64,000 nucleotides of DNA, taken from assembly GCA_000004985.1 (NCBI GenBank), contig GG738894.1. One strand, 5' to 3'. Source of the DNA: Naegleria gruberi (Eukaryota). Position numbers and translations under genes: made by a program. Under the pieces are notes generated by a model. The model did not search any database. It was not told where the DNA came from and saw only the letters and a program-made list of their open reading frames with translations. This document shows positions 12,081-51,776 of this stretch, in pieces (the stretch's first letter is position 1; each line of letters opens with the position of its first letter).

Positions 12081-13754
12081 TTATTGATTGGATTCCTTGT
12101 AGGATTGAGCTACTAACTTCATTAGTTCTTTTCGATCGAGATGTGGATTCTTATCTTTTAGTTTCTTGTAATTTTCCTTCATAAATAAATTATACTTGGT
12201 TGGTTGCTTGGTTTTTCCAATTGGTTCCAATATTCCAGTGCAAACTCCACACCTTTGTTTTGTGGTATCAACAGATTTGGAATGTCTCTTTACAATTGAT
12301 CCACAATCCGTGCATTGCCACTGATATTTATATTCAATATCGTATGAGTGGCAAGTCGTGATTGGAATGTCAGGATAGTATTTCTGAATAATTCCACCAT
12401 ATAAATAAAATGTTTTACCATGGCCTGTAATGCCGTCGAACATAAATGAAGCAGCATGACACATTTCGTGAGCTAGTGTATGAACAAGTCTCTCTTCACA
12501 ATCACAAACCTTTGTGGACATTTCAATGGCACATACCTTGATTTGTGATTTAGTGATTGTAAAGAGTTTACACAACCCAGCAGTTTTCCTCAAATGTTGA
12601 TTCCATAATAAATATGCTTTCCCTTTCAGATCTTTAGCCTTACCCTTTGTAACTTTCATAGCTGGAAGTTTGTTTTGGAAGCATACCTTGTTGAATTCGT
12701 CATAATATTTCTGTAATAAATCATCTCTGACCTTTTTGAATTTTTTGGCATCCATCTTTTCAAAAGTTAATGTCTTTGAATTTTTGGAACTTTTTGCTGG
12801 CTTTTTGTTAGTTAATATGGATTTTTCATGGAAATCATCATCATCGTCATCAATTTCAATAACATTGGTATCAATCTTGTTTTTTGGGTTGGATTTTGTT
12901 TTCGTTTTGGATTTCTTAATTTGTGGACTTTCTGCTTCCATTTCGTCATAGTCCTCATCATCGTCATCATCCTCTCCACTACTTTCAGCATATTCCTCAT
13001 CACTCTCCTCGTCAAAGTTGAAATCCTCTTCATCAGATGATATTGCTTCCTCCTCCTCCTCCTCAGAAGAATCACTCAGCTCAAAAGCATTCTTTTTCTT
13101 TTCCTCCTCCTCAAATTCCTCAATAATATCCTGCCCCACAATATCAGATTCTTTCACCCAAGTATTTTCACTACTTGGATATCCCTCCCATTTCACATAG
13201 TATTCAACAAGCTTATTTTTCACTCGTTTTTTAATGATCCTTTCAATGGAATAAACATCATCTTTCTCCTTATCCTTCTCAAAATCATATTCTTCCTCAG
13301 AATCTGAATGATCCTCAATCACTCGCTTTCCAAATGATTTTCTCGATTTTCTTCTCACTGGCGAAGTGTTTGCCATCTCTTCATCACTTTCATCATCATC
13401 ATCGGAAATAGCAATCACAACTCTTTCATTAAATTCATTTCCAGATTTTCCGTGATGGTGATGATCAGCAGCTTCTTGAGTGGCTAATAGTGGTGGTAAT
13501 GTTGCTTGCTCCTCCTGGAAATGTACAGTACTTCTTCTTGGTAATTCCTGCTCTTCTTCCTTCTTTAATAGTGCAATTGGTTGCTCAGGAAGAGTGTTAT
13601 CACTTTCGGAAAGGAGACCTTTTGGAAGAATCGTCTCTGGATTCGAAAAGAAATCATGCCAAGTAATTGAACGCCATCCAAATTCGTTACACATGTTCAA
13701 GTATCGATTACGAGTTACTTCATATGAAAATTCTTGTTCTTGATAAATATTCAT
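12081..13754 (-). CDS. GCNA/SPRTN-like SprT zinc metalloprotease with acidic disordered region, chromodomain, Zn-finger and HMG-like C-terminal tail
   Basis: 557-aa ORF with ATG. Chromodomain-like VYSIERIIKKRVKNKLVEYYVKWEGYPSSENTWVKESDI. Very acidic D/E/S-rich stretches. SprT core 'HTLAHEMCHAASFMFDGITGHGKTF' (HExxH…GHG, as in SPRTN HEMIH…GHGPEF). Cys-rich 'CTDCGS…CGVC' region. C-terminal basic helix-like 'TKYNLFMKENYKKLKDKNP'. The domain order matches the GCNA (acidic repeat/SprT) family. Confidence 0.65.
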   Translation of the reverse strand: MNIYQEQEFSYEVTRNRYLNMCNEFGWRSITWHDFFSNPETILPKGLLSESDNTLPEQPIALLKKEEEQELPRRSTVHFQEEQATLPPLLATQEAADHHHHGKSGNEFNERVVIAISDDDDESDEEMANTSPVRRKSRKSFGKRVIEDHSDSEEEYDFEKDKEKDDVYSIERIIKKRVKNKLVEYYVKWEGYPSSENTWVKESDIVGQDIIEEFEEEEKKKNAFELSDSSEEEEEEAISSDEEDFNFDEESDEEYAESSGEDDDDDEDYDEMEAESPQIKKSKTKTKSNPKNKIDTNVIEIDDDDDDFHEKSILTNKKPAKSSKNSKTLTFEKMDAKKFKKVRDDLLQKYYDEFNKVCFQNKLPAMKVTKGKAKDLKGKAYLLWNQHLRKTAGLCKLFTITKSQIKVCAIEMSTKVCDCEERLVHTLAHEMCHAASFMFDGITGHGKTFYLYGGIIQKYYPDIPITTCHSYDIEYKYQWQCTDCGSIVKRHSKSVDTTKQRCGVCTGILEPIGKTKQPTKYNLFMKENYKKLKDKNPHLDRKELMKLVAQSYKESNQ

Positions 13755-14136: not shown

Positions 14137-15119
14137 ATGAAAACTTTCCAATCTACAACTATTGCAATCATTGCAGCAACATGCATGCTCATTGCCATGA
14201 TGCTCTCATGCACCAATGCTCAACGTTTGTCTACTCAATTCGGTCACTTGATGAGCTCACAAGCTCTGATCAAGCAAATTAATTTGGATCCACAATCAAC
14301 ATTTAAAGCTCAATTGTATCCAAGATTTGAGTGGGGTCATGTGTTGGTGAAATTAAAATGAAGGTCAATGTGGTGCTGTTTGGGCAATGGTAAGTTTTTT
14401 AATTCCGATCTAAATGATCAATAATTATTATTTTGCAATTTCGAATATTAATTTTTATTGGAAACCATTTAGGTTCCAAGTGCTACAGTTTCTGATAGAA
14501 TGTGCGTTCAATCGAGTGCTAAATTCCAAGAAAGATTATCCACCCAATATATTTTGGAATGTGATACTAGAGATTTTGGATGTAATGGTGGTTATTTGAA
14601 TACTGAATTCGAATTTGAATTAAAGAGAGGTATTCCAACTGAAAAATGTGTTCCATACTCTGCTGTTAATGGTACTTTGGCTAATTGTCCATCCAAATGT
14701 GTCAATGGTGAACCATTAGTTTTATACAAGACTAAGGCAGTTCAAAACCTTACTGGAGAGCATGATATGCAACAAGCCATCTTACAAGGAGGAAGTATTA
14801 TGACAGAACTTGACATGTATCAAGATTTCCTCTATTATTCCAGTGGTGTCTATCAACATTCTGCAAATTTGAGACAACCAATTGCTAAGTTTGTTGTCAG
14901 AATTATTGGATGGGGAGTTGAAAATGGTGTTAAATATTGGATTGTTCCAAATATTTGGGGTAAAACATGGGGAATGCAAGGTTATATCTGGATTCGTGTA
15001 AGTATTGAAGGAAATTATTTTTAAATTTAATTTATAATATTTATTACAATTATTGTAAAATAGAGAGGTAATAATGAAAGTAATATTGAAAAGGATGCAT
15101 TCGCTTTCCAAGTTTACTA
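14137..15119 (+). CDS. cathepsin B-like C1-peptidase homologue, catalytically inactive, copy 1; exon 1 frame-disrupted (possible pseudogene); exons 14137..~14398, 14473..14997, 15063..15119
   Basis: Signal peptide MKTFQSTTIAIIAATCMLIAMMLSC. Exon 2 (174 aa, intact) and exon 3 align colinearly with cathepsin B (SDRMCVQSS…FGCNGGY…GWGVENGVKYWIVPNIWG…RGNNESNIEKD). Introns GTAAGT…TAG at 14399..14472 and 14998..15062. Relative to copy 2, exon 1 lacks about 135 nt of the propeptide/mature junction. It also has two 1-nt deletions just upstream of NEGQCGAVWAM that put in-frame stops (TGA 14359) before the donor. Confidence 0.45.
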
Positions 15120-15240
15120 AACAACTTCATCCATACACAAACTATTCAATAAAATAATTGAGTTTTAAAATAATTATACCAAATCAATATATAATATATA
15201 TACTCGTTTATTAATTCCATTTAATGGACATCCAATCATA

Positions 15241-15291
15241 TNNNNNNNNNNNNNNNNNNNNNNNNNNNNNNNNNNNNNNNNNNNNNNNNNN
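15241..15291. other. scaffold gap (51 N) truncating the 3' end of the phospholipase B-like gene
   Basis: Run of N. ORFs spanning it (15236..15640) are artefacts. Confidence 0.95.
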
Positions 15292-15293
15292 GT

Positions 15294-16936
15294 TTATTCC
15301 ACATGGCTGAACTTGGCAGGGCATTGACCATTCCAAACAAAGACTGGTTGATCAACACTGGTTGGTCCATTGATAATGTGAACAGTGTTAATGTCGAGAA
15401 TTGAAGAAACCTTAGTATCATAACCTCCACTGCAGCTTCTTGTAGCATCAGTAGCAGTTGGAGACAAATCATTTCTGCTCGAAATGGAATAGCCAGGTTG
15501 ACCAAGAGAAAGTGGATCATACTTCCAATTGTTATATCTAAGAAGATTCTTAATAGTATCAATTGAGTTGACCTTATTTTGATCTCTTCTAAAAATGTTA
15601 GCTCTAACACATGTTTCATAGGACAACATGTCTGAGGCATTTGGTCTCTTTAAGATTTCAGGATATCCAGAAATTGTGAAAACTTCCTTATAGAATGGAA
15701 CATTGTAACTAGGCCAGTATCCATAGCTGAGAATTTGAGTTTGATCAGCACCAATAACCTTTCCTGGAATTTGCTCAACAACCCAAAACAAGTCATTGGC
15801 AAGTGGTTGGCCAGGAACGAACTTTTTAGTATCCAAAACCATGAATTGATTATTGTAAGTACCAGAGTTATATTCAGAAAAGATTTTACTCCATGAAGGA
15901 GCATCATCAGCAAGTCTGTTGGCTAAAATAACTCTTTGCCAACACAACAATGATTCTGGTTTGAGTAAATCATATAAGGAAGTGTTGAAAATATTGTTGG
16001 AAGTCTCAATAACAACTAATCCATTTTGAGTAATGTAAAAATCATCATTTGAAGCAAGTGTAGCTGGGTAACCAGAGAATGTGACCTTTGGTGAAGCAAC
16101 CAATTTGTTATTGAAATTGAAAGTGTAAGTCTTATAGATACGACTGAAATTTTCAATGATATAATGATAATGGTTAGAAAACAAACTTACGTCATAGCTG
16201 CAAACACGAACCACGAATTATGTCCAAAGTAGATATTACTGAAATCTGGTGCGACCTTGAAGATGGCAGAGCAGTGACCATTGTCTCTGGCGAATTGTAA
16301 AATTTGAGCTGAGGTCATCTTGTTAAAATTTGGTCTGAAATCCTTCTTAACATTGACAATATCAAACAAGTCACCAGAAGCACTCATTACTTGCAATTCA
16401 GCATAACTAATTTTTTCTGAACTATTTGTAGTGGCATAATTGTAACCATCAAGCAAACCCTCCATTTGCAAATAAACAGTTCTGACCTGTTGCCAGAACG
16501 GATCGTTGGCATACTTGGCAGATGAATCTCTAACCCAAGCACGTTGAGACTCCAAGAAATCTCTCACATATTGTGGCATCTTCTTATCAGGATTCTCAGC
16601 CCACACATACGTATTCAAATTAACAAAGTGATTGTAAATTCTCTTCCTTGTCAAGACTCCTTCCAAATAACCGGCAGCATAACTTTGCAATTCATCCTTT
16701 ATCAATCCATTGGTTTCAATAGAGAGAACATCCCATCCTTTTGCCTCATAACTATCATCATAATGTGCTGCAGCAATACCCGATCGCAGATTATAAACTC
16801 CATTCCTAACTATGTAATTCCCATTTTCATAGTAAAAGGTGGCATCGAGAGCCAAAACCTTGTTGGAGGCTTCATTTAAAACACCACAAACAATCAAGAG
16901 TCCGAGGATAAGTAAAAGAAGTGGTGATTTGTTCAT
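15294..16936 (-). CDS. phospholipase B-like (PLBD/LAMA family) Ntn-hydrolase; exons 16191..16936 and 15294..16143; C-terminus lost in N gap
   Basis: ATG at 16936 (MNKSPLLLLILGLLIVCGV signal peptide). Family-typical 'DNGHCSAIFK' (Cys nucleophile context) and 'YFGHNSWF'. ORF ends …AAMT at ATG AC|GTAAGT (16190). The 47-nt intron ends …AATTTCAG (16144). Exon 2 continues in frame (TRIYKTYTFNFNNKL…) for about 290 aa to the gap. Confidence 0.65.
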
Positions 16937-17089
16937 TTTTTTTTTATCAAGACTATTAATGTGAACCTTACGGAGATGTAAGCTATAGAATGGAATTTTC
17001 ATGTTTTAAATATAATAGATTTTTAACAAATATTTACATTATATTTAGCACAAATAATTAAATTTTCAATACTACCAAACAAATAAAAA

Positions 17090-20943: not shown

Positions 20944-22098
20944 TTATATACTTGATATGTCAGGGAATTTCTCACGTATTTCCAACATGAATTTGTTATC
21001 CCTTCTTAGCTTTTCTCCAATAAATGTATCAAGGTTTACATGGTGATTGTGTGAAGGATCTTTGTATGATAATCCTATTCCCAACATTACAATTTCCTTA
21101 TCATTTTTGTACATGTTTGGAAGGCTGTATACAACTCCATTCTTTAAGCATCGAATGACCAGATCTCTATCTTCCAATAAATTATGTGGTAAATAATTCA
21201 GAATATTATTATTGATATCGAGAGAAAGATATTGTTCTGTGATTTCTCTTGTTTTAAACATATTGTTCATAAAGCAATAAGATATTCCATTTCTTTGAAA
21301 TACTGCCTTGGCAATATCCGTATCTGTAATCAAATGATCTGGGATGAAGCTAAAGATGTCATATGATACATAGTTTGTCTTTTGAATCAATAAGAGGAGA
21401 AATTCTTTGGTTAGAATTGATTTGTGTACGCAACCTAAATCTGAACATCTTTTGCCTATACAAATTTGAACTATCTCTGTGTCCATTCTAAAATTATTGG
21501 GAAATATAAAAAGTGGAGCATTATTGTGTACCAATTTCAGAACATTTTCTCTCTTTTCTCTAATTGGTTCTGGAAACTCACGATAGGAGAATATATTTGC
21601 CTTCACAGATTCCAGGAAGAAGTTTTCATCGTTTTGCAATCTATCACTAATTAGCTCAACATTCTTGGGGTTCTTTTTGATAGCTGCCATAGCAATTTCC
21701 TTGTCATCCAAAAACTGTTGAGGTATTTCTCTAGCAATAAATCTCAAAGAAAATGATTGAGTCATGACCATTAGCTTGACAATTTCTCTGTCATTATAAA
21801 ATTGTTTCGGTACTGAAATATCATACTTGCAACAAAGTGTCCTCAACACAAATGCTCTATCCTGTTGAAACTCCTCAGGTAAATGAGAATAGAGTGGATA
21901 TGATTTCAGAGCAGCAAGACAAATATTCCTATTCCTCTTCAACACTTCATTGCAATGAAAGTAAAACAGACCATATTGGGAAACTAATTTCAAAGCAACT
22001 CGATAACAATCTCTCAATTGTTGAGGAATTTGATTAAAAACTTTTACAGTCCTAATTAAATGTGCAATCTTTCCAATCACGTATTCATTTCCTACCAA
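20944..22098 (-). CDS. DUF4116-type repeat protein (N-terminus uncertain)
   Basis: 384-aa ORF. Repeated 'xxDREIVxxAVxxNxxALxYxSxxLKND' units (e.g. FYNDREIVKLMVMTQSFSLRFIAREI, LDDKEIAMAAIKKNPKNVELISDRLQNDENFFLESVKAN). ORF-track start is TTG. The frame stays open about 150 nt further upstream without an in-frame ATG (a nearby ATG is in +1). Confidence 0.5.
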   Translation of the reverse strand: MVGNEYVIGKIAHLIRTVKVFNQIPQQLRDCYRVALKLVSQYGLFYFHCNEVLKRNRNICLAALKSYPLYSHLPEEFQQDRAFVLRTLCCKYDISVPKQFYNDREIVKLMVMTQSFSLRFIAREIPQQFLDDKEIAMAAIKKNPKNVELISDRLQNDENFFLESVKANIFSYREFPEPIREKRENVLKLVHNNAPLFIFPNNFRMDTEIVQICIGKRCSDLGCVHKSILTKEFLLLLIQKTNYVSYDIFSFIPDHLITDTDIAKAVFQRNGISYCFMNNMFKTREITEQYLSLDINNNILNYLPHNLLEDRDLVIRCLKNGVVYSLPNMYKNDKEIVMLGIGLSYKDPSHNHHVNLDTFIGEKLRRDNKFMLEIREKFPDISSI

Positions 22099-22527: not shown

Positions 22528-23639
22528 ATGGAAAGGAGAGTTGGAATATTGATGATATTCATCATCGGAATGGTTATTTGTATAATGATGAATGTTTCGG
22601 TGAATGGTCAACGTTTGTCGAGTGATTTTGGACATTTGGTAAACTCTCGGACACTGGTTAGACGAATTAATGAAAATCCAAAATCACCATTCAAGGCAAA
22701 ACTGTATGAAAGATTTGATTCTATTGCCAAGTTGATTAATTTATCGAGGAGAAATGGTGGCAGAAAATTTTCTATGAAAACTGTTCAATCAAGAAAGTTT
22801 AAACTTTCGAAAGGATTGGCAATTCCACCTGAATATGATTTGAGAAAGAATTGGTATCAATGTGTTGGTGATATTCAAAATGAAGGTCAATGTGGTGCTG
22901 TTTGGGCAATGGTAAGTTTTTTCCAATTATTTCAATTCTAATGTGAAATATTTCAATAATAATCTGCTCTATTTTCTAATTTAAACCATTAGGCTCCAAG
23001 TGCTACTGTTTCTGATAGAATGTGCATTCAATCTAATGCTAAATTCCAAGAAAGATTGTCCTCTCAATATATTTTGGAATGTGATACTAGAGATTTTGGA
23101 TGTAATGGTGGATATATGAATACTGAATTTGAATTTGAATTGAATAGGGGTGTTCCAACTGAGAAATGTGTGCCTTACATTGCCTTCAATATGACATTAC
23201 AACCTTGCCCAACTAGCTGTTTCAATTCTACTCAACCAATGGTTTTATACAAGACAAAATCAGTGCAAAATGTGACTGGAGAGTTGGACATGCAGCAAGC
23301 CATTTTGCAAGGAGGAAGTATCATGACTGAAATGGACGTTTATCAAGATTTTATATATTATTCCAGTGGAGTGTATGAACATGATCCATCTTTCACTCAA
23401 CCAATAGCGAAAACAGTTGCAAGAATTGTTGGTTGGGGAAGTTTGAATGGAGTTAATTATTGGATTGTAGCCAATGTTTGGGGGAAAACTTGGGGTTTGG
23501 ATGGCTACGTTTTGGTTCGTGTAAGTTATTTAGTGGCTTAATATTTCAATATAATCACTTGAATATTTATGTATTACTATAGAGAGGTACTAATGAGAGT
23601 AACATAGAAAAGGACGCATATGCTTTCCAAGTTTACTAA
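22528..23639 (+). CDS. cathepsin B-like C1-peptidase homologue, catalytically inactive (pseudo-protease), copy 2; exons 22528..22909, 22993..23519, 23583..23639
   Basis: Signal peptide MERRVGILMIFIIGMVICIMM. Propeptide/mature junction LAIPPEYDLRKNWYQCVGDIQNEGQCGAVWAM aligns with cathepsin B [32 protein letters not shown]. Exon junctions GCA ATG|GTAAGT…CCATTAG| and CGT|GTAAGT…TACTATAG|. Downstream 'FGCNGGY', 'GWGSLNGVNYWIVANVWGKTWG', 'RGTNESNIEKDAYAF' are colinear with cathepsin B. Confidence 0.7.
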
Positions 23640-23890
23640 TCATTAAGTAAATAAAAAATCTATTTTGTAATATTCTTCTAGTTGAACTGTGACACTCATT
23701 ATAATAAATGATGAACATACCTAAATAGATGTTGTTTGCCAAGAACATTAATTTCTCACCAATCAACACTAAAGCAGAATAGAACTAAATTTGTCATGTT
23801 TTATTCTCAATAAAACAATTAAAAACATTACATTCCTATTCAAAAATTATGTAATTGACTTTCCAATTCTACGAGAATCCCTTGGTTAAA

Positions 23891-25483
23891 TCACTCAAAC
23901 ACATTAGAAGGGTTAGTTTTCAACTCGTGCCAAAGCTTGTACTCGTCAGTGTAAATGAATCTGGAGAACGAATCAACTAGGTTCGTATATAAATCTCTCT
24001 TAATTTCATGTAATAAATGCTTGCTGGTATCAAGATTAATGGTACCACTCTTTCTTTCAGTATCTACCAATTTCTTTGTTTTTCCTCTAATGTTAATTTC
24101 TTCTGAGCAACCATCATCAAGGAATTTATCATAGACCATGTTAATCACCTTGCTTCTTCTTTTTCCTGACATGTCAATAAAATTCTTTTCCATATCCAAA
24201 AGCTCTTGCCAACAATTCAAATTCTCGACTGAAAACTCTGCAACACAAAAGTCTTTGAATAATTGAAATCCCATAGCATCTCGTAAAAGTAGCTCCAACT
24301 CGTTTGTCATTATTGAAGGAGCAGAGGCTGAACGTTCCAAATTCTTTCTATCAGATGGTGTTTTACCATGATCTGAAGAGGGAATTTCCACATGACTATG
24401 AGATTGAGTCTTAATGACTGTTCTAGTCTTTGAAAATGATTTGTTGAGAATGTTGGCAATCTTTTTCTTTTCATCCAATTCAGCAGCAATAGTTGTATCA
24501 GTATCTGTATCAGCTCCTGCTCTTGTTGCTGAAGATGAAGAGTCTGAAGTTGCTGCACTCGTAATTGAATGAACTCTAGGTCTGTGTTGTGGAAGTTGTG
24601 TTGATGATGAAGGAGAAAGATCCACAATTGGTGTATTCACATTTTGCATTGAAATAAACTCCTCACTATCGGTAACTCTTCTTCCAAATTCCTCTTCCCC
24701 TTTCATTTCTGCCTCATCGATAGTATTTCTTCTGTGAAGCATAAAGAAGGCCTTGAGCACATTCTTCTTCTTTAAGAGAGAAAGCTTGGGCGTTGAAAGT
24801 GATCGTCTGTAGCCTGAATTTTCTTGTAACCTAGCAATTTGTTGTTGAGTGGAAGGAGGAAGGGATTGTCTGGACTTGAGATTGGATGATTCGTTAGTAG
24901 TTGAGATTGTGGTAGTATTATTTATAGTGGTGGTATGAATGGTAGTGTTGTTGTTGGTAGTGGAGGCTCTAGATTGTGTTGGGTTTGAAATTTGCATGAC
25001 TGTGTTAATGTTGGTTGGAATATCTGAAATATGAATACTAGTACTGAGCGCAGTCCTAGAGTTTCTAACACTCGTCGTTGTGCTGGTCAGTGAGGTCATG
25101 TCACTATCAACATGGTGCAATGGAAAAACGTTGAAAGATGTATTCATGGATGAGGAGAGGAGTACGGGAGAAGATGGTGTTTGTTGTTGATTGTTATTTG
25201 AACAATGTGATGAAGAGGCAGCTCCAATTCCAACAAGAGCATGCGATGCAGCAAACACTACATCACTTGGAGGTTGTTGCTCTTGATTATTAGGTGTAGA
25301 GATGGCATTATTCGAAACTTGATGATGAACATTAAAACTGGATACAGTGGTCAGAGGTGATTGATTTCTCGTTGTTGCTGTTATTGTTGGTATTGATGAT
25401 GAATTCTTAGAGGAGGATGAAATGTGCCTCTCACTCCTCCTAAATGAGAAGCGTTGTTTAGAATGAGAATTTGTATTGCCCAT
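23891..25483 (-). CDS. RGS-domain protein with N-myristoylation motif and long S/T/N-rich low-complexity N-terminal region
   Basis: 530-aa ORF with ATG. MGNTNSH (G2, S6). C-terminal RGS signature 'FQLFKDFCVAEFSVENLNCWQELLDMEK…YDKFL'. Confidence 0.65.
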   Translation of the reverse strand: MGNTNSHSKQRFSFRRSERHISSSSKNSSSIPTITATTRNQSPLTTVSSFNVHHQVSNNAISTPNNQEQQPPSDVVFAASHALVGIGAASSSHCSNNNQQQTPSSPVLLSSSMNTSFNVFPLHHVDSDMTSLTSTTTSVRNSRTALSTSIHISDIPTNINTVMQISNPTQSRASTTNNNTTIHTTTINNTTTISTTNESSNLKSRQSLPPSTQQQIARLQENSGYRRSLSTPKLSLLKKKNVLKAFFMLHRRNTIDEAEMKGEEEFGRRVTDSEEFISMQNVNTPIVDLSPSSSTQLPQHRPRVHSITSAATSDSSSSATRAGADTDTDTTIAAELDEKKKIANILNKSFSKTRTVIKTQSHSHVEIPSSDHGKTPSDRKNLERSASAPSIMTNELELLLRDAMGFQLFKDFCVAEFSVENLNCWQELLDMEKNFIDMSGKRRSKVINMVYDKFLDDGCSEEINIRGKTKKLVDTERKSGTINLDTSKHLLHEIKRDLYTNLVDSFSRFIYTDEYKLWHELKTNPSNVFE

Positions 25484-26260: not shown

Positions 26261-29200
26261 TCAAAAACTTGGAAATTCTCTTTCCTTTGAAAGAGGAAAA
26301 CAATAAGACAAGTCCAGAAAATAATTATTCAATGGACACTCTAATAAAATAGTTTTTGAGACTTTTTCATTTCGAGATTGCTTGATACGGATAGTAAATC
26401 TTGGGCTTACAATATGTGGCATTTTCTCTTCTTGATTATTGAATAATTTGAAGCAATTCAAATTGAAAAGGCAACATGTATACACAAATGGACTTCTAAT
26501 GAGTGACTTAAATCTTTCTTCAAGATTAAACTCATTGTCGTCCTCTTCTATGTATTGATTGTAGGTATGGAAGAGCCAGTATGCTGCCTTGTGGTTGAGC
26601 TTATCCAAACTGTCTCCATCATGTTTGATAAAGACTTTCTCCCAGTTTATCTTATCTTCTTCAAGGCAATCTTTAATGCTTTCGAATAATTTCTGTTTGT
26701 GTGCTGAGAATTTATCAGAAAGGACAATCTCATCATTTTTTCTGGTTGACCAATAGAGTCTCCATTGTGAATACGCTTCCTTAAATTCATCTTTCCATCT
26801 TTGCCACTCTGAGGAGTATATTTCAGATGGGTTTTCAAAAACAGTGTCAAGTTGCTTTGTATCTGAAAAAACCATCCTATTGAATATATTTCTAATTAGG
26901 TCAAACATTCTTGCTTCGAATGTATCAAGTTCTATATGAGATTGGTCAGTAATCTTCAATTTGCAAAGTTCCATCCACTTTGGAGAATCCTTTTTTGGAA
27001 TTTCATACAACTGTTTAGCATTAAAAGCTGATCCCTTAATAGTATCAATGCTGTCGTGATACATTTTGGACAATTTAAGTTTGATATCTATTCCAACCTT
27101 GGAAGAATCTTCTCTCCAACACATTGTTTTAAGATAAACTTCTGAAATTTTTGATGATTGTTCCATCATTTCCAATACAGTTTTTCTTACATCTTCCATG
27201 CTTAGTGAATTTTTAACAGTTTTGGTCACCTTATTGGTGGCAGCTCCATCGTTATAATTCAATTTTGGTTTGAGATTTTGATCAAATAACTTGACAATTT
27301 CTGGATCGAAAATAATCTCATACAAGTCGCCATCCAAATCACCTCCTGCCATGTAGCATAATGGTTCTGGGACTTTCTTATAATTTGGATTGTGTCCAAA
27401 GACAATGACATCTCTTCTTGATTGGAGGAATTCTGTTGGGGGATGCTTGACCAACTTTAAGCATTGGATATCACCTTCATAGGCAAGAGGATTTCTATAG
27501 ACAAGAACCTTGTCAATTTTAGCATAATCTAAACTTCGAATCAACTTGGAGCATGGGATGTGAACTTCATCATGTTTCAAAGTCGAACTTTCATCATAAA
27601 CACCCATACCACTTAAAAACCCAGGATGTTTACATTTCATACTGAGCTTGTCACTAACCATGGATTCAAACTTGCTTTCAATATTGTCTTTTACAACGGA
27701 GGAAATAAAATAATTATCCAATGAATGTTCAGCCATTATTAAATCTCTAGCAATAGATTCTTGCGAAGTTTCTCCTGATTGAGAGAGGAGCACGTTGCAT
27801 AAATATTCTGGATTATCCTTATTCTCAACAATTTCCATTAATTGAGTTTCGTAAAAATTTTTGAACAATTTTTCCATTTCTTCTTCATTCGTAGTCATTT
27901 GCAGTAAGCAAGACATGATATTTCTATTAATATTGCCACCATGAACACGAGCAACATTCAATATATCAATCTTATTGTAAATTGAATAATTTCCTTCAAA
28001 TTTCACCATTGAATTTCTCAAAATGACTTTGGTATTGGATGGCAATTTGTGCTTTTTAAGTAATTCTGCCCACATTGATTTGTTAACCTTTTGAATGACT
28101 CCTTTGGCTCCCAAAATTCTTACCTGCATGGCACTGATGTTCTTGAAATTCTTTTCGAATAGTCTACCTTGTTTCGTATCTGATTCAAATAACTTGTCCA
28201 TAAAGAAATATGGAACAGAGTAGGTATTTTCCAGGACTTGTTCGAAGAAATCTTCAACAGCCATACCAGCACCATCAGTCACTGCAATATCATCTGAAAT
28301 AATTTGGATATCATCTTGTTTCCATTCCACAATACTTGGAGTACTAGTTCCCATACTCAATCCAACTCTACTAGCAACCTTTCTAGGTCCATGCTCCTCA
28401 GCTTTTTCAAAGGTACCCAACATTTGCTTCAATATTTCCAAATTCAACAATGTTGAGTTGTAAAAGATACAGGAATCACCTTTCAAACCAGAATTTGAAG
28501 TACCTAACAAACAATACTTATGACCTTCATGAACAATACCATAGGAGAGACAATATTCCTTCTTGCATTCTGAGAGTGCTTTCAGATCCTCTTTGGATGT
28601 AAAATCAAATTTTACAACCATTAAACATTTTCCCAAATTCAAACTCATTAAAATTCTTGCTAATCTTGAGAATGAATTCAAGATTGAGTAACGATTGGTT
28701 CCATCACCAATAATCGCATACTTTCCATTGTTTCCCTCCATTTTCTTCCATCTGTTTTTCACATGACAAACTAGTGGATAGAATTCACCAAAGAATTGTT
28801 CGTATCCACCAGCAACATTTGAATTGAAAAGTGATTGAAAAAGAGTTTGATTAGCTTGTGATTCAAACAGTTCCAATTCTCTGGCAAAGTATCTGTATCT
28901 CTTCATCAAGTATTCCAATGGATTCTTTGCTAAATCCATGGTGCTATCACACATATAGGAAATCTTTGCACTCAACTCTGAATATTGAACATTATCTATC
29001 TTGACAACAATCTTCCAAACATTCTTTCCAAAACCAAGAACATTCCAATCTTCCCAGCCGGTGATTGTTTGCAAATCTTCATCTCTCATTGGCAATACAA
29101 TAATCAATTTACCATTAACCNNNNNNNNNNNNNNNNNNNNNNNNNNNNNNNNNNNNNNNNNNNNNNNNNNGTTGATTGCATTAACCAATGTCTTTTGATC

Positions 29201-29374
29201 TCTCATTCCTCTCTCATGGACCAATAAAACTTGTTGAACAGTTGATGAATCACAGTTTTCCAATTTCAAATAAGTACGAATCTTTCGGAACAGAATATCC
29301 TTGATCTTCTCTGTAGCTCCAATCTTGATAGATGGAGGACCAGAAATTGTTGTGGATGGGGAAGTGTCCATCAT
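26261..29374 (-). CDS. eukaryotic RNA-dependent RNA polymerase (RDR family), interrupted by a 50-N gap at 29121..29170
   Basis: ATGATG at 29374 (MMDTSPSTT…). Catalytic 'CYMAGGDLDGDLYEIIFDPEIV' (DxDGD signature of cellular RdRPs) in a protein of over 1000 aa. The ORF-track N-terminal 60 aa (alt start) are probably 5' UTR. The 3' end may include an unspliced intron (GTAAGC at about 26418). Confidence 0.7.
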   Translation of the reverse strand: MMDTSPSTTISGPPSIKIGATEKIKDILFRKIRTYLKLENCDSSTVQQVLLVHERGMRDQKTLVNAINXXXXXXXXXXXXXXXXXVNGKLIIVLPMRDEDLQTITGWEDWNVLGFGKNVWKIVVKIDNVQYSELSAKISYMCDSTMDLAKNPLEYLMKRYRYFARELELFESQANQTLFQSLFNSNVAGGYEQFFGEFYPLVCHVKNRWKKMEGNNGKYAIIGDGTNRYSILNSFSRLARILMSLNLGKCLMVVKFDFTSKEDLKALSECKKEYCLSYGIVHEGHKYCLLGTSNSGLKGDSCIFYNSTLLNLEILKQMLGTFEKAEEHGPRKVASRVGLSMGTSTPSIVEWKQDDIQIISDDIAVTDGAGMAVEDFFEQVLENTYSVPYFFMDKLFESDTKQGRLFEKNFKNISAMQVRILGAKGVIQKVNKSMWAELLKKHKLPSNTKVILRNSMVKFEGNYSIYNKIDILNVARVHGGNINRNIMSCLLQMTTNEEEMEKLFKNFYETQLMEIVENKDNPEYLCNVLLSQSGETSQESIARDLIMAEHSLDNYFISSVVKDNIESKFESMVSDKLSMKCKHPGFLSGMGVYDESSTLKHDEVHIPCSKLIRSLDYAKIDKVLVYRNPLAYEGDIQCLKLVKHPPTEFLQSRRDVIVFGHNPNYKKVPEPLCYMAGGDLDGDLYEIIFDPEIVKLFDQNLKPKLNYNDGAATNKVTKTVKNSLSMEDVRKTVLEMMEQSSKISEVYLKTMCWREDSSKVGIDIKLKLSKMYHDSIDTIKGSAFNAKQLYEIPKKDSPKWMELCKLKITDQSHIELDTFEARMFDLIRNIFNRMVFSDTKQLDTVFENPSEIYSSEWQRWKDEFKEAYSQWRLYWSTRKNDEIVLSDKFSAHKQKLFESIKDCLEEDKINWEKVFIKHDGDSLDKLNHKAAYWLFHTYNQYIEEDDNEFNLEERFKSLIRSPFVYTCCLFNLNCFKLFNNQEEKMPHIVSPRFTIRIKQSRNEKVSKTILLECPLNNYFLDLSYCFPLSKEREFPSF
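29121..29170. other. scaffold gap (50 N) inside the RdRP gene
   Basis: Run of N. Confidence 0.95.
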
Positions 29375-29955
29375 GGAAAGGGTGAGTGGGTGGTTATTGT
29401 TGATCATCACAAATATTATAATTTGTCTGGTTGAGTAGTTGTTGTTGATTTGTTTTTTTTGATTTTGAAAATTGTGTGATGTGGAGAATTCCCAATTAAA
29501 AACCCAAATTTTTGTTTTCCAGATCAAAAGAACGAGAATATTTGTTTCTCTCAACAAATCTCAAAAGAGGCAATGAGAACAAAACCATTTTACAGTACCA
29601 ATTACATTCAGTAGAATATTTGGATAATCACAATTGATCTCAACAAGGGATATTCATCTAATAATCGGTAGTGTTAGCCCAATTTGTTCCCCATTGATTG
29701 GCGAGTGTTTTCTTCTCCACATACTTTTTATCATCAATTGATTAACCCCCTCTTTGTATTGTTCCTCCTCTTCGGAAGAATGATATCAACATGTATTACT
29801 CTAGAGAATCATATTAAGTGTTATTGTGATTTCTTAAGGGATTTTTTTTTCTTCTAAACAACATACCTCATCCTTTTGGATGAAGAATATGAGTAGGCTT
29901 TTGTCTATTAGGTGACAATTATCAACGGTGTTTTATAGTTCCATATCCAAACACC

Positions 29956-30960
29956 TTATTTTCTTAGTGATGTTAATTGTTTCATTTCACTTATATATTT
30001 GGCTCCTTCATCACCAATTCGATTGTTATATATTTGAAGTGATGTCAATCGTTTCATTTCACTTATGAATTTGGCTCCTTCATCACCAATTTCATTGCCA
30101 CCAATATTAAGCGATGTTAATTGTTTCATTTCACTTATATATTTGGCTCCTTCTCCACTAATTAAATTGTTAGATATACAGAGTGATGTCAATTGTTTCA
30201 GTTCACTAATAGACCTAGCTCCTTCATCACCAATTAGATTGTTATATGTATGAAGTGATGTCAATCGTTTCATTTCACTTATGAATTTGGCTCCTTCTAC
30301 ACCAATTCGATTGCTATAGTATTAAGTGATGTTAATTGTTTCATTTCACTTATCAATTTAGCTCCTTCATCACCAATTCATTGCCACCAATATTAAGCGA
30401 TGTTAATTGTTTCATTTCACTTATATATTTGGCTCCTTCATCACCAATTCGATTGTTATATATTTGAAGTGATGTCAATCGTTTCATTCCACTAATTAAT
30501 TTAGCTCCTTCATCACCAATTTCATTGACACCAATATTAAGTGATGTTAATTGTTTCATTCCACTAATTAATTTGGCTCCTTCATCACCAATTCGATTGT
30601 TATATATATGAAGTGATGTCAATCGTTTCATTCCACTAATTAATTTAGCTCCTTCATCACCAATTTGATTGCCACCAATATCAAGTGATGTTAATTGTTT
30701 CATTTCACTTATATATTTGGCTCCTTCATCACCAATTCGATTGTTATATGTATGAAGTGATGTTAATTGTTTCATTTCACTTATCAATTTAGCTCCTTTT
30801 ATACCAATTCGATTGCCACCAATATTAAGCGATGTTAATTGTTTCATTTCATTTATATATTTGGCTCCTACATCACCAATTCGATTGTTATATATATTAA
30901 GTGATGTTAATTGTTTCATTTCACTTATGAATTCTGCTCTTTCAAAAGAGTCAAGCAACC
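29956..30960 (-). repeat. 72-bp coding tandem repeat array (about 14 units, roughly 85-95 percent identical)
   Basis: Unit TTTCATTTCACTTATATATTTGGCTCCTTCATCACCAATTCGATTGTTATATATTTGAAGTGATGTCAATCG and variants recur head-to-tail. Confidence 0.7.
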
Positions 30961-31300
30961 AACTAGAAAATTTAACATTAACAATACTATTCATAAATTG
31001 ACTTTTCATGAATAATTCAACTCGTTTCTCTGTAAATTTCTTTTTAAATTTAATAACAAGTTTTGAACGTTCCCTGATCACATTAAAGAATTGTTTTGAA
31101 ATTAAAGTACAATTATTTAAAATAAACCACGAATCATCAAGCATTGAAATTATTTCAAAACAAACATCATATGAAAATATTTCTTTTTCGAGTTTCACAA
31201 ACTTTGCTTTCTCTTCCATATTATTATTATTGTTAGTGAATATTTCCTCCGAATTAATGAATTGATGATTTTCAAAATCTTGTCTGTTTCGTTTGCTCAT
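29956..31300 (-). CDS. F-box-like / RNI-like LRR protein built from about 14 tandem 24-aa repeats; frame disrupted at about 30274..30352
   Basis: ATG at 31300. N-terminal 'YDVCFEIISMLDDSWFILNNCTLISKQFFNVI' F-box-like. Then repeats 'ISEMKQLTSLNIGGNRIGDEGAKY' (ribonuclease-inhibitor-type LRR). Two ORFs (30353..31300 and 29956..30273) carry the same repeat but are separated by two repeat units with 1-nt indels. Confidence 0.45.
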
Positions 31301-31501
31301 TTTTTTTTAATTAAAACTAATTTGGTGTCAATCCAAAATCAATAATCTTAATAATTCCTCTAATTTTCATGCGAATTTAAATTCACACTCCAAAAATTTG
31401 AACCTTATAACTTGGCACAGTTTTCATTTTTTTTAATTCATCAAACCTCTTCATCATTTCATGTTTTTAACGTGCTTTTACGGAAAAAAGTATTAATAAA
31501 A

Positions 31502-32839
31502 ATGACAAAACGATCCATTGAAGAAAATTGCTCATCTTCAAAGAAGATAAAGATTCAAGATCATGTAAATCACATTTCGGAAGATGTTTGGAGTCAAACC
31601 ATTTTCCCATTTCTTGATGGCAATGAATTATTTAAATCAATAAGATTAGTTTCGTTTCTGTGGAATAATCTTGTTTTGGCCACTCGATGTAATATTCAAG
31701 TTTATTTTCCAGGTTTCACAATGGAGGAAGTAGAACGAACTGTTGTCCAATTAAAAGAATGGGAATTTTCTGATAGAGAAACCTATGAGGTAACAAGTTT
31801 TAAATATTCGAATGATAAAGAGCATTGTAAACGAGTGAGAGAATTTATTCAAAGTGGAGAGGAAGGTAAATTCAAAAATGTTACTGGAATTACTTTCAAG
31901 AGTAAAATTCATCCATGCTTCTTTGAAAAGATTTTCAGTTTGGATTGGCAACATTTGAAAACTCTCAATTTGAGTAATAATACTCTCAATGCTGAGGGAG
32001 CAAAGTTTTTAGCAAATGGAAATATGAATCTAACACAATTGAATTTGTCAAATAATTCCATTGGTAATGAAGGTATTGGCTATTTATCAAAGAGTTCAAT
32101 TGTTAAAGGGCTAACTTTATTGAATGTATTGTGTAATAATATTGATAATGAAGGAGCACAATATTTACAAGGTGATAATTTTAAAAATCTAACCCAATTG
32201 AATTTTCAAACTTTATCATCTAGAGGAAATCGTTATCTTGCCATGACTGCTCACTTTTGTGGAGTTACACCATTCACTATTCATCCTTTTGATAATACTG
32301 ATGATTTGAAGGAGTATCTCTTTAACTATTACATTAAGTATTGGAATCAATATGCAGGTGAAGTATTGGGTCTCTCTAAAAATGATGACAAACAGGTACT
32401 GAAAGAAAAGATTTATCCATTACCTTTTGAAAGAATTGCTGGGTTGGCAGTTGGTGAAGTTGGTGGAATGGTTTATAATGAATGTGAAACAGAGGCTGTT
32501 GTTGGAATAGTTTATGGTCAGGAGATTAATGAAGAGAATTTGGCCAAAACTAACGAATCAACACCATTTGTTATTGTTGAAAAGCTTGATGGTTATTCCC
32601 ATGAATGTACTTATTGTATTGGAAAGTCTAAGCTTGAAGAAAGATTGGCAAAAGAAGAATACGAAGAAGATGAACTTGAAGAACTTGAAGGAGATTCCAA
32701 AACATTCAAACAAATAGCAAGTTTGCTTCAATCAGGTATTGATAATGATGATGGAAGAGACATTTTTCTGGCTTTTTTCATTGGTGAAATTGTTGATGGT
32801 ACATTTGTAGAGCTAAAGAAAAAACAATTAAATTATTGA
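31502..32839 (+). CDS. F-box-like + RNI-like LRR protein with acidic C-terminal domain
   Basis: ATG at 31502 (MTKRSIEEN…). 'SEDVWSQTIFPFLDGNELFKSIRLVSFLWNNLV' F-box-like. LRRs 'LNLSNNTLNAEGAKFLANGNMNLTQLNLSNNSIGNEGIGYL'. Confidence 0.5.
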   Translation: MTKRSIEENCSSSKKIKIQDHVNHISEDVWSQTIFPFLDGNELFKSIRLVSFLWNNLVLATRCNIQVYFPGFTMEEVERTVVQLKEWEFSDRETYEVTSFKYSNDKEHCKRVREFIQSGEEGKFKNVTGITFKSKIHPCFFEKIFSLDWQHLKTLNLSNNTLNAEGAKFLANGNMNLTQLNLSNNSIGNEGIGYLSKSSIVKGLTLLNVLCNNIDNEGAQYLQGDNFKNLTQLNFQTLSSRGNRYLAMTAHFCGVTPFTIHPFDNTDDLKEYLFNYYIKYWNQYAGEVLGLSKNDDKQVLKEKIYPLPFERIAGLAVGEVGGMVYNECETEAVVGIVYGQEINEENLAKTNESTPFVIVEKLDGYSHECTYCIGKSKLEERLAKEEYEEDELEELEGDSKTFKQIASLLQSGIDNDDGRDIFLAFFIGEIVDGTFVELKKKQLNY

Positions 32840-44359: not shown

Positions 44360-44629
44360 TTGGGTTGTCTGTTTCTGGCCGACTTACTTTCTAATATTCC
44401 TCCACACCAACCTACTCAAACTAACCCACAACAACCCACCATTCAGCCCACCATGTTTGAAATGCATTTCACACAACAAATTCCAACCACACTTCCATGG
44501 AAAGTGCAATTAACACATGATCCAACTTACAAAGAGGCAACCTTCGGTTATCCCATAACAAACTGTGGGAAGATCTTTCTAATATTATCAGTGATGAATA
44601 CAAGATGGTATTTACTAATAGTGTACTAA
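44360..44629 (+). pseudogene. truncated duplicate of the 5' exon of the gene at 46237 (no ATG, diverges after GYPITN)
   Basis: PHQPTQTNPQQPTIQPTMFEMH…TTLPWKVQ…HDPT…FGYPITNCG parallels PHETNQTNSQQSTTIQPTMIEMH…TTLPCQVQ…HDPT…FGYPITNYG at 46261..46500. Clear nucleotide-level similarity with indels. Confidence 0.35.
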
Positions 44630-46236: not shown

Positions 46237-47208
46237 ATGAATCCACAACAACCATTATCTTTGTTTCCTCCACACGAAACTAATCAAACTAACTCACAAC
46301 AATCAACCACTATTCAGCCCACTATGATTGAAATGCATGCATCCACATACGAAACTCAAATCATTTCACAACCAATTCATCCAACTACACTTCCATGTCA
46401 AGTACAATCCAAACCAATCAATCCTAAAACACATGATCCAACTCAATTACAAAGTGGCAACCAATTTGGTTATCCCATAACAAACTATGGAGTACCTTTA
46501 GAATATTATCAACAAAATCCACCTCCATTGGCTGGCCAATTTGAAAGATTATTCCAACCAATTCCAGATCAGAAAGGCATTCAAATAACTCAATCTGATG
46601 AAGGTCAAACATTTCTCATTACTGCAATGGTTTGCTGTTGTCCATGTGCAACAGGTTACGTTTTTTGTTCTTCATGTTGTTGTAAAGGAGGAACTCATTC
46701 CATTGGACATACATCATCACCAAGTTGTGATACCTGTGATCGTTGCTGTGATTGCAGTGGTGCTTGTGATACTGCAGCATCATTTATAGTTCTGATCATT
46801 ATGGCAATTATTGCAATTTTAATCTTGACAGCATTAGTGTCAATTCCAATAATTTTACTTGCTTTACCATTTTATTTGTTGTGGAAACTTTACACATTGA
46901 AATCTGTCAAAATTCTTCTCAATGAAGAACGAAGAGAAATTATTGTAACGACAAGAGGAAAATATTTCAAAAAGGATGAAATTCTATCTGAAACAATCAT
47001 TCCATTTCATAATATTTTGGAAATTTCTGTTGTGGAATTGGATAAAAAGCATTTCATTGTTGCCAAATGTAAAGGAGATACCAAGATTAACTTTACTCAA
47101 TTTATTACTGACATTTCAGAAAAGGAACTTCAAAAGGGAGTTCAATTCTTAAAGAACTATTTCTCATTGCACGGTGTTGCTGCATTTCAAACAGCAGAGC
47201 TTCCATAA
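46237..47208 (+). CDS. Cys-rich membrane protein (P/Q/T-rich N-terminus, CCC/CxxC cluster, two TM helices)
   Basis: 323-aa ORF with ATG. 'MVCCCPCATGYVFCSSCCCKGG…CDTCDRCCDCSGACD' followed by 'FIVLIIMAIIAILILTALVSIPIILLALPFYLLW'. Confidence 0.45.
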   Translation: MNPQQPLSLFPPHETNQTNSQQSTTIQPTMIEMHASTYETQIISQPIHPTTLPCQVQSKPINPKTHDPTQLQSGNQFGYPITNYGVPLEYYQQNPPPLAGQFERLFQPIPDQKGIQITQSDEGQTFLITAMVCCCPCATGYVFCSSCCCKGGTHSIGHTSSPSCDTCDRCCDCSGACDTAASFIVLIIMAIIAILILTALVSIPIILLALPFYLLWKLYTLKSVKILLNEERREIIVTTRGKYFKKDEILSETIIPFHNILEISVVELDKKHFIVAKCKGDTKINFTQFITDISEKELQKGVQFLKNYFSLHGVAAFQTAELP

Positions 47209-49456: not shown

Positions 49457-51776
49457 ATGGAACAACTTCAACTAACAATACAAAAGAAGGTAAAATATTA
49501 TTTAACCATTGCAGACAAGAACCTCCACAAACAAATATCGCAAATGGTAGAAAACGGAGGAGGGATTATTGTTGATGATATAGATGCTAACACGATTATA
49601 GTTACTGACGAAAAGGAAAAAAATTTATTTGATCCGACTCAGCATATGCTAATACAAATGTAAGTTTTAATTGCCAAATTGTTCATCTTTAAGTAATAAG
49701 CGTAAGAGAGAAGAGGATGATTTTGTCTCCAACCAATCTGAGAGGNNNNNNNNNNNNNNNNNNNNNNNNNNNNNNNNNNNNNNNNNNNNNNNNNNAAAGT
49801 ATTCGAATTATGTTTCCACCACCATGGCTAAAGAGGATAGTAAAAACTTAAGTACAGCAACGGTTATGTTTATTGGAGATTGTCCAGGTGTAGGGAAGTC
49901 TAGATTTGCATATGAATTACCTGGTTTTTTGAAACATAAATTCAATTCACCACTGAGATATCATTTTGTTAATTTGGCAATTTGGTTCAATTCAGGTTAT
50001 AATCCAACTATTGAAGAAGCAAAAGACAACCTAATTATATCAACTGCAGCAAGAATGATTTTTAGTTACATTACACATGTCAGATCACATAGTTACAATG
50101 GAAAAATTATGGACGAGTTAACAAGTTTGGCTTTTTATAGGGAAATTTATAATGATTTGCAAAGAAGTGTTTATCCTAATGATCAAACACTTGTAAATGT
50201 AATTTCATGGATCATTAGAAGGGAATCTAATTTTACTGATTTGCCTGTTTGGATACATTTAACCATTGATGAATATAACCAAGCATTTCAGTACATAACT
50301 GATATTTCTATAATTGACAATTGGTGTATTGCTATTTCAAACATTCATCAAACTGTTAAATTTAGCCGTGATCTGTTTACTAATTTACTCACAGGTACCC
50401 ATGTTCACACCATGATGAATCTCAAATCTGTAGAGTCTGGAGGAGAAGCATTTCTCTCCAGAATTACAATTTCTAAATTCAACAAGGAAGAAAATTACCT
50501 TCTTTACAAACAAATGAAAATGCCCTACGAAATTAAGTTGTTAAATGCATATCTAACAATGGGAGGACATGCAAGATTATGTGTAGAATTTATCAAAGAA
50601 TATAGAAACACTAAAAGTATTTCAGCTACCCTAAAGGAGCTTCAAAATGTTGTTGGTAATAGGAAACAAGATAGATTTCAACTGAATTTAAATAGAGATG
50701 AAATTGAATTTTTCTTATCTCTCTGTTTCACAGGTATTACCATTTCAAAGGACTATGTTTTTAACTCCACACCAATTTTACAATATCAGAAGAGTAATAT
50801 TGTACTTATGAAACAAATTTCAACTGACCAAATTTTAATAGAGATACCTCTTTTAATAATATCGGTAATGTTAGAGAAATTATCATCATCATCATTTCTA
50901 AACAAACTGGGTAACTCTTTTGAACATTGGGAAACATTCAATGATAATTTTGATAATTTTGAGACATTTAATCAACAACTATTAGAGACAAAGCTAAATT
51001 GTTTCCAAAAGCTAAAAGCATTGAATGTTATTAATGAACCTATTACAATCAAAGATTTATTTACAATAGATGTTGATTTTCATGATTATATAATTCAATT
51101 AGATAACTCCACTTATTCTTCTGTAACACTAGACAAACAGTATCCAATTACCAATGGTATAACTTTAAGTCCTAATATTATTTACAAAAATGGCAAGTCA
51201 GCTCCTTTCGCTGATTTATTTTCATATTTGAAAGTATGTAAACCAGACAAGAGCCAAACCGAATTATTTTGCTATCTACAAGTCAAACATACAAAAAAAC
51301 AAGCTCACATAGGTTTTAAAGATGATATAGAACCTGAATTAAAAAAACTAGAAAATCAAAAAGAAAAGTTATCCAGTGCTCCTATTTTCATGCTTTTTAT
51401 TAGTAACAGACCTCATCTACAAAAACAACCATTGACAAATAATTATACTCAAAAATATAGTGTAATATACTTAGATAATGGAAAGCGTTACTTTAGCCCT
51501 TTTTCTGATTTATTGAACTGCAATATAGGTATTGAGTTACCAATTAAGGAGTTATCTGTTGATAATTTGAAATATATTTTGGGCAGAAGTTGTACAAAAA
51601 GAAAAAGTTTTCATTTCCGAACATTAGTAAGCGCTATTGGGACAGCTAATGAGAATGAAATAGCTACTATACTTGTACAATTCTGTGATGAAGAAATGCT
51701 CAGTAGTATGCTGAGTTTCGTGAAAGAAAAAGAAATAATCAAGGAAGCATTGGCTCTACTGGTACAATCGAATTGA
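49457..51776 (+). CDS. BRCT-like N-terminal exon + novel P-loop NTPase; exons 49457..49663 and 49707..51776; 50-N gap at 49746..49795
   Basis: Exon 1 (MEQLQL…KKVKYYLTIADKNLHKQISQMVENGGGIIVDDIDANTIIVTDEKEK…) has a BRCT-like pattern and ends ATG|GTAAGT. The 43-nt intron ends …AATAAG. Exon 2 is in frame (RKREEDDFVSNQSER…). Walker A 'VMFIGDCPGVGKSRFAY' and Walker-B-like 'VWIHLTIDEYNQAF'. Long C-terminal region without recognisable repeats. Confidence 0.5.

Follow-up and report, generated by a model that had tools for sequence, protein, structure and literature searches.

We analysed a 64,000-nucleotide window of the genome of Naegleria gruberi (contig GG738894.1 of assembly GCA_000004985.1; all positions below are those of this window), which contains two loci related to cathepsin B, here termed copy 1 (14137..15120) and copy 2 (22528..23639), both on the plus strand. 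They are the sole cathepsin-like loci within the window. Copy 2 comprises three exons, of which exon 1 (22528..22911, 128 codons) encodes a signal-like hydrophobic segment followed by a propeptide and by the first part of the mature domain with the motif EGQCGAVWAM, exon 2 (22993..23520, 176 codons) supplies most of a mature papain-like domain without an occluding loop, and exon 3 (23583..23639) encodes RGTNESNIEKDAYAFQVY followed by TAA. The two phase-0 introns of 81 nt (22912..22992, GTAAGT...TTAG) and 62 nt (23521..23582, GTAAGT...ATAG) have canonical splice sites, and their removal yields an uninterrupted open reading frame (ORF) of 322 aa; the window as a whole is AT-rich (about 33% GC), with short introns of the GTAAGT...AG type. 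The spliced product is 100% identical to the N. gruberi protein XP_002672910.1 (NAEGRDRAFT_72036, D2VSR7; P0001 in our searches), which is annotated as "predicted protein" and nothing more. This JGI/NCBI model has 302 aa and begins at Met21, leaving out the hydrophobic N-terminus. The earliest ATG of the open frame is at 22528, and this in-frame upstream ATG and the signal-like segment MERRVGILMIFIIGMVICIM (22528-22590) lie outside the public model, which is probably truncated at its N-terminus. Residues 1-98 of copy 2 consist of the signal-like segment and the propeptide, contain one Cys, and are devoid of TINAG-type N-terminal modules in Pfam searches. In each of the two copies the only strongly hydrophobic segment (Kyte-Doolittle 2.8-3.3) lies at the N-terminus; N-X-S/T sequons are also present (six in copy 2 and three in copy 1), and the combination fits the secretory or endolysosomal entry typical of cathepsins.

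The sole Pfam domain of copy 2 is PF00112 (Peptidase_C1), which is matched with E=1.1e-49 and 169.9 bits (cut-off 20.7) over profile positions 1-218 of 220, and the best sequence matches in the PDB are cathepsin B proteins from trypanosomes, Schistosoma and mammals at about 30% identity. Active C1A peptidases contain a Cys25/His159 dyad together with the oxyanion Gln19 and Asn175 (papain numbering). We assigned the corresponding columns from ungapped sequence motifs in HMMER alignments, where EGQCGAVWAM falls over (Q)xxCGSCWA ("negqcgavwam" over "dqsacgscwav") and AKTVARIVGWG over GGHAVRLVGWG ("piaktvarivgwg" over "ylgghavrlvgwg"). In copy 2 the oxyanion Gln column is occupied by Glu119 (22882-22884), the nucleophile Cys column by Val125 (22900-22902) and the catalytic His column by Thr269 (23413-23415), and the catalytic Asn is retained as Asn289 (23473-23475). 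The same motif is present in copy 1, with Val at 14378-14380, Phe at the His column (14890-14892) and the Asn kept. A scripted read-out of these columns gave E/V/T/N for copy 2 and E/V/F/N for copy 1, as against the canonical Q/C/H/N. Thus, of the residues that define an active C1A peptidase both copies keep the Asn alone; with Val, Thr or Phe, and Glu in place of the three chemically active residues, papain-type catalysis is ruled out. The original prediction for this region, drawn from the DNA letters alone, had described both loci as cathepsin B homologues with replaced catalytic residues, and it was right for both: the alignments to cathepsin B sequences place no Cys or His at the catalytic columns. 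It had further called the substitutions identical in the two paralogues, which is accurate for the Glu and the Val common to both and inaccurate for the His column, where Thr in one copy faces Phe in the other.

An AlphaFold2 model of copy 2, built on a 41-sequence alignment, has a pLDDT of 89.1 and a pTM of 0.88. Foldseek superimposes it on the procathepsin B zymogens of Trypanosoma congolense (5FPW), T. brucei, S. mansoni, rat and human with TM values of 0.80-0.83 over about 300 columns, N-terminal helices included, and also matches it to cathepsins B, C, H, K and S with a probability of 1.00. On the strength of this model the fold of the copy 2 product, pro-segment included, is predicted to be procathepsin-B-like. 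The Foldseek output carries no residue-level alignment, and the fold comparison raises no conflict with the sequence alignment at the catalytic columns. The short propeptide domain of the cathepsin B type, PF08127 (Propeptide_C1), is not among the Pfam matches of copy 2 at E<=0.01; its relative P0065, discussed below, has a weak match to it. The hallmark of cathepsin B in the strict sense is the occluding loop, which is about 20 residues long and contains His110-His111 and a disulfide between Cys108 and Cys119. This entire loop (IPPCEHHVNGSRPPC in the human enzyme, with both of these features) is missing from both copies, which are consequently not cathepsin B proteins in that strict sense, and it is equally missing from their nearest protist homologues, active ones included. 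The cysteines of the occluding region, earlier listed among the conserved features, have therefore disappeared along with the loop. Eight Cys remain in the mature domain (four disulfides) against 14, and these match the cathepsin B pairs 14-43, 26-71, 62-128 and 100-132. Copy 2 also keeps further elements of the substrate-cleft scaffold: the helix start with its CG..W motif, the Trp pair of the cleft, the NGG strand and the Asn.

Copy 1 differs from copy 2 in the state of its first exon. As assembled, exon 1 of copy 1 (14137..14389) is 253 nt long, not a multiple of three, and disrupted; exon 2 (14473..14997, 175 codons) is open, and exon 3 (15064..15120) encodes RGNNESNIEKDAFAFQVY followed by the stop codon TAA at 15118-15120, one nucleotide beyond the end at 15119 previously given for the gene. 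Translation from the ATG at 14137 runs through ...YPRFEWGHVLVKLK* into a TGA at 14359-14361 after 74 codons, and the EGQCGAVWAM codons (14360-14389) are out of frame with that ATG, with stops directly ahead of them in their own frame. The counterpart of this exon is intact (...YPRFESTAKLISYVRYQSSNKFSLKGATQQFVAKDLPIPPEYDLRKIWGQCVGEIQNEGQCGAVWAM) on a 3.8-kb metagenome contig from ENA, L001, which is 96% identical to the window over 3.6 kb and represents the same locus. Relative to L001, exon 1 of copy 1 has lost about 127 nt plus 1 nt, 128 nt in total, which is not a multiple of three. The assertion that the two paralogues have an identical three-exon structure accordingly fails at this frameshifted first exon. 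Exons 2 and 3 of copy 1 differ from L001 at 4 of 579 coding nucleotides, with 3 of the 4 changes being synonymous, and their open, near-identical state indicates that the lesion is either very recent or a local error of the assembly. Judged from these sequences, copy 1 in this genome may thus be either a very recent pseudogene or an assembly artefact, and its intact form, seen solely on L001, appears to belong to a strain or haplotype closely related to the one assembled. Downstream of copy 1, at a distance of 120 nt, a run of N (15242-15291) marks a scaffold gap, whose L001 counterpart is short and continuous. A word-indexed protein search found no annotated N. gruberi protein for copy 1. We also considered a rescue of exon 1 by alternative splicing and rejected it: the only phase-0 GT sites ahead of the stop are non-consensus (GTGTTG and GTGAAA), and their use would cost the protein two structural Cys and the beginning of its central helix.

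The two copies are 77% identical in DNA sequence from the 3' end of exon 1 through exon 3 (14339-15123 versus 22860-23642) and 70.7% identical over the 5' stretch of exon 1 that both contain (14215-14330 versus 22603-22718). Similarity between them is limited to the gene itself, and a segmental duplication was hence discarded as its source. A Nei-Gojobori comparison of exons 2-3 gave a dN of 0.147, a dS of 0.774 and a dN/dS of 0.19. With exon 1 of copy 1 completed from L001, the mature domains have a dN/dS of 0.21 at a dS of 0.64 (Fisher p=1.2e-13 versus equal rates), the propeptide has a dN/dS of 0.39 and the overall value is 0.27, the signal segment being saturated. This comparison of synonymous and non-synonymous rates, which had been suggested as a check on the original prediction, shows that the duplication is old and that, during most of the period after it, the two copies evolved under constraint; purifying selection has shaped the pair, and so has kept a catalytically dead protein.

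To place these proteins among their relatives, we searched 1.84 billion representatives exhaustively with the copy 2 protein (P0001), obtaining 22,422 matches, of which the best 150 were read at the catalytic columns. Among these 150 there are 112 domains with the canonical Q/C/H/N state and about 25 complete domains with substitutions, and the two best single-domain full-length matches, P0063 and P0065, are both substituted. The former is a Willaertia magna protein (KAL9654558.1) reading E/N/D/T and the latter, encoded on metagenome contig L003, reads E/T/H/N; in a soil-metagenome fragment (P0002), which shares 69% identity with copy 2 and 77% with copy 1, the His column is occupied by Tyr. 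A search for relatives in a substituted state had also been recommended, and these three are the nearest of them. Across the copies and their relatives the His column is Thr, Phe, Tyr, Asp or His, a variability that is expected once the chemistry has been abandoned. Within the best 150, Glu at the Gln column occurs nearly only together with a changed Cys column and in 0 of the 112 canonical domains. The Glu-type states are E/V/T/N, E/N/D/T, E/T/H/N, E/S/H/N and E/S/R/N (the relatives concerned being P0063, P0065, P0085, P0195 and P0126), with P0126 reading E-HN or ECHN depending on which of two alignments is used. From the sequences in hand, the association of Glu with a lost Cys may reflect a single clade or repeated relaxation.

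In a neighbor-joining tree copy 2, copy 1, P0065 and P0063 form one clade, with further substituted sequences placed next to it. The Willaertia gene is intact and has two introns; its neighbours are unrelated, and synteny offers no support for orthology. A scan of metagenome DNA with the clade alignment retrieved the P0065 contigs and distant relatives only. On L003, the contig of P0065, positions 1-2127 of the minus strand encode a PPR protein with a DYW deaminase domain. PPR-DYW proteins occur in plants and in a small number of protists, Naegleria among them, and this gene hints at a heterolobosean or similar protist as the origin of P0065. The called C-terminus of P0065 runs into a short intron, the true end being ...WGSNWGNEGYFWIKRGVNEVGIEEMVWVIEGGI. 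A common descent of the inactive state is plausible.

Based on these observations, we consider it probable that copy 2 is a functional pseudo-protease gene whose loss of catalysis is old and which has been kept by purifying selection, its inert cleft acting as a sink for peptides or inhibitors or as a regulator of active cathepsins. Homology, fold, the residue states, the integrity of the gene, selection and the substituted relatives are shown by the analysis, and the secretion, processing, binding partner and physiological role of the product are extrapolations built upon them. The product would be a glycoprotein resembling procathepsin B and destined for the secretory or endolysosomal pathway, with the papain fold, the four core disulfides and most of the scaffold of the substrate cleft retained. 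With Val in place of the nucleophile Cys, Thr in place of the general-base His and Glu in place of the oxyanion Gln, it could not hydrolyse peptides, and it also lacks the occluding loop, which is the source of exopeptidase activity in true cathepsin B. Its propeptide might be removed in trans by one of the approximately 35 active C1 proteases of the amoeba. The inert cleft, open because it is loop-less, could then bind peptides or cysteine-protease inhibitors of the stefin, cystatin or chagasin type, and the protein would serve as a sink or regulator for active cathepsins, in line with the biochemistry of TrCB1.6, a protein of Trichobilharzia regenti. The most likely role is that of a binding protein without catalytic function on the secretory or endolysosomal route, such as an inhibitor or peptide sink.

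Several observations weigh against this interpretation. The clade of substituted sequences has weak bootstrap support (22/60) and could owe its grouping to long-branch attraction, and the intron positions of the Naegleria and Willaertia genes differ, lending no support to orthology. Word-indexed, non-exhaustive searches found no orthologue in N. fowleri or N. lovaniensis, and these searches also missed N. gruberi's own active cathepsin B proteins. All database entries concerned are genome or metagenome predictions. The broken state of copy 1 in this genome implies that the family is at least partly dispensable. The propeptide, if left uncleaved, would block the cleft, and the cleft itself could be altered or closed by the change of GG to AK before the former His, together with one or two inserted residues.

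An appreciable but distinctly smaller probability attaches to a structural, adhesive or ligand-binding secreted protein that works through surfaces other than the cleft, similar to TINAG/TINAGL1 or the scabies mite SMIPP-Cs and perhaps permanently zymogen-like. Auto-activation is impossible without a nucleophile, the propeptide is itself constrained as its dN/dS attests, and a related substituted protist protein has been automatically annotated as "tubulointerstitial nephritis antigen-like 1"; moreover, non-proteolytic functions unrelated to inhibitor binding are on record for SMIPP-Cs (PMC7815109). However, copy 2 has only PF00112 in Pfam and no extra Cys-rich modules of the TINAG kind at its N-terminus, the partner of such a protein would be hypothetical, and the retention of the cleft scaffold (NGG, the cleft Trp residues and the Asn) is better accommodated by a pseudo-protease that still uses its cleft.

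It is far less probable that both loci are functionless, decaying pseudogenes whose common substitutions predate the duplication. The frameshift and premature stop of copy 1 in the window, the lack of an NCBI gene model for it, the freedom of the His column to vary between Thr, Phe, Tyr and Asp, and the purely predicted status of the database entries would all suit such decay. Yet the 322 codons of copy 2 are unbroken and bounded by canonical splice sites, 8 of 8 structural Cys are kept, and the mature-domain dN/dS remains at 0.21 (p=1e-13) despite a dS of 0.64-0.84 between the copies. Furthermore, copy 1 is intact on L001 with just 4 of 579 coding nucleotides changed, 3 of them synonymously, and a substituted homologue persists as an intact gene in Willaertia. 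The least probable alternative, to which we give hardly any credence, is that the protein is still an enzyme with a different chemistry, for instance through the Glu that replaces the oxyanion Gln. The near confinement of this Glu to domains with a changed Cys column among the best 150, and its absence from all 112 canonical ones, could be taken in its favor; against it, the Cys column is occupied by Val in Naegleria and Asn in Willaertia, rather than by a nucleophile such as Cys, Ser or Thr, and the His column is unconserved. A Gln-to-Glu replacement is, besides, a single-base change expected under lifted constraint, and the Glu-type sequences may form one clade and hence record one event. 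Purifying selection and the substituted relatives argue for a retained non-enzymatic function over an artefact. The earlier claim of such a selected function stands to the extent of the dN/dS of 0.21 and of these relatives; it is weakened by the frameshift in copy 1, and the binding or decoy roles attached to it go beyond these data.

The favored interpretation of copy 2 as a cleft-using pseudo-protease finds its nearest parallel in TrCB1.6 of T. regenti, a highly expressed protein with a Cys29-to-Gly replacement. It undergoes processing in trans and binds chicken cystatin in its inert cleft, and a role as a decoy or regulator has been proposed for it (PMC7054455). Like TrCB1.5 and TrCB1.6, the Naegleria proteins are cathepsin-B-family paralogues that exist beside active ones, have a non-nucleophilic residue in place of the nucleophile Cys (Gly in TrCB, Val in Naegleria), and possess a propeptide that would need removal in trans. 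Unlike the deeply diverged Naegleria proteins, which are about 30% identical to solved cathepsin B structures and have lost the Cys, His, Gln and loop, TrCB1.6 is 98-99% like its active sisters, keeps the His, Gln and occluding loop, and regains activity upon a single back-mutation. Naegleria is also a free-living amoeba, with no host whose inhibitors would need a decoy. In Foldseek the copy 2 model agrees best with T. congolense proCathepsin B S9 (PDB 5FPW), a protist procathepsin B from a cathepsin B-like family in which the nucleophile is substituted; the E-value is 1.6e-28, the TM values are 0.81-0.86 and the sequence identity is 27-28%. The "S" members of the T. congolense cathepsin B group presumably have Ser for Cys and may keep some activity.

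The animal proteins TINAG and TINAGL1 are secreted proteins with cathepsin-B-like domains that have no protease activity and function as binding or matricellular proteins, and in TINAG proteins N-terminal Cys-rich modules of the somatomedin-B or vWC-like type precede the inactive domain. Their name has been auto-assigned to a related substituted protein of Anaeramoeba. In contrast to their architecture, the Naegleria protein consists of the signal segment, the propeptide and the PF00112 domain only, and nothing points to a common descent of the inactive state. The multicopy SMIPP-C family of the scabies mite consists of papain-fold proteins that have mutated catalytic sites, are retained and expressed, and have non-proteolytic roles (PMC5956821, PMC7815109). 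They differ from the Naegleria proteins in being of the cathepsin L or Der p 1 type (group 1 allergen-like) rather than the cathepsin B type, and their functions are tied to parasitism through complement, coagulation and fibrinolysis. Within Naegleria itself, N. gruberi has 35 C01 genes with expansions of cathepsin B, and N. fowleri about 10 cathepsin B genes (PMC8296547). The active members share with copies 1 and 2 the organism, family and fold, and presumably the secretory or lysosomal route; unlike the two copies they keep the Cys/His/Asn triad, and they are likely to be partners or processing enzymes of the copy 2 product.

Our literature search found no paper on the copy 2 gene, its identifiers or any inactive Naegleria cathepsin, and those published comparative analyses of Naegleria that were searchable make no mention of inactive cathepsin members. 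Dead papain-family paralogues are already well documented, among them TrCB1.5 and TrCB1.6, the T. congolense cathepsin B family, the SMIPP-Cs and TINAG/TINAGL1, and the Naegleria gene is an uncharacterised new example of this well-known phenomenon, with the modest twist that the pseudo-protease belongs to a free-living amoeba rather than a parasite. Research on the cathepsin B proteases of Naegleria treats them as virulence factors of N. fowleri, and comparative genomic work makes use of counts of "cathepsin B genes". Such counts would read differently if some members are dead enzymes under selection, which might add a regulatory layer on the active proteases in the form of inhibitor sinks or non-catalytic binding proteins. 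Two corrections to the annotation also follow, concerning the copy 2 model, which is without its signal-like N-terminus, and copy 1, which is unannotated and disrupted in the reference assembly. More tentatively, and with a good deal of doubt, we raise the possibility that the Naegleria, Willaertia and environmental proteins make up an old lineage of loop-less cathepsin-B-like proteins, heterolobosean or possibly broader in extent, in which catalysis was lost once, with the Gln-to-Glu change in common, and which was kept for a non-proteolytic job in free-living bacterivorous amoebae, such as buffering endogenous or prey-derived inhibitors of cysteine proteases on behalf of the many active cathepsins of the amoeba. 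If true, this would extend the idea of an inactive protease as an inhibitor sink beyond parasites to free-living protists.

The neighbouring genes of the window, which encode phospholipase B-like, PALP enzyme, LRR, DUF4116, RGS, RNA-dependent RNA polymerase (RdRP) and SprT/Chromo/HMG proteins, are unrelated to the cathepsin-like loci and supply no functional hint. Copy 2 is flanked by genes for a DUF4116-repeat protein (20944-22098) and an RGS-domain protein (23891-25483), both on the minus strand and without an evident link to proteolysis. Convergent with copy 1 is a phospholipase B-like gene (PF04916) on the minus strand at 15294-17002 (1106-2790 of L001); the window and the independent L001 alike show it as two overlapping ORFs, making a short intron likely and a sequencing error unlikely. 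On the other side of copy 1, the minus strand at 12081-13754 contains a 557-aa ORF with the uncommon architecture of a Chromo domain, a SprT-like metalloprotease domain, a SprT zinc ribbon and an HMG-box. A 1098-aa ORF on the minus strand (26261-29557) encodes a eukaryotic RdRP domain (PF05183, E=2e-59) and has the scaffold gap at 29121-29170 within it; the other N runs of the window, all marking scaffold gaps, are at 15242-15291, 49746-49795 and 63552-64000. A 72-nt tandem repeat at 29966-30944 (13.6 copies, 80% matches) overlaps a minus-strand ORF at 30353-31300, and its minus-strand reading corresponds to 24-residue leucine-rich repeats (LRRs) of the RNI type (NNRIGDEGAKYISEMKQLTSL), with the ORF seemingly truncated inside the array. 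A second LRR protein is encoded on the plus strand at 31412-32839. Two more diverged internal repeat pairs, with 66-69% identity, link 44397-44590 to 46265-46511 and 53648-53910 to 54017-54276.

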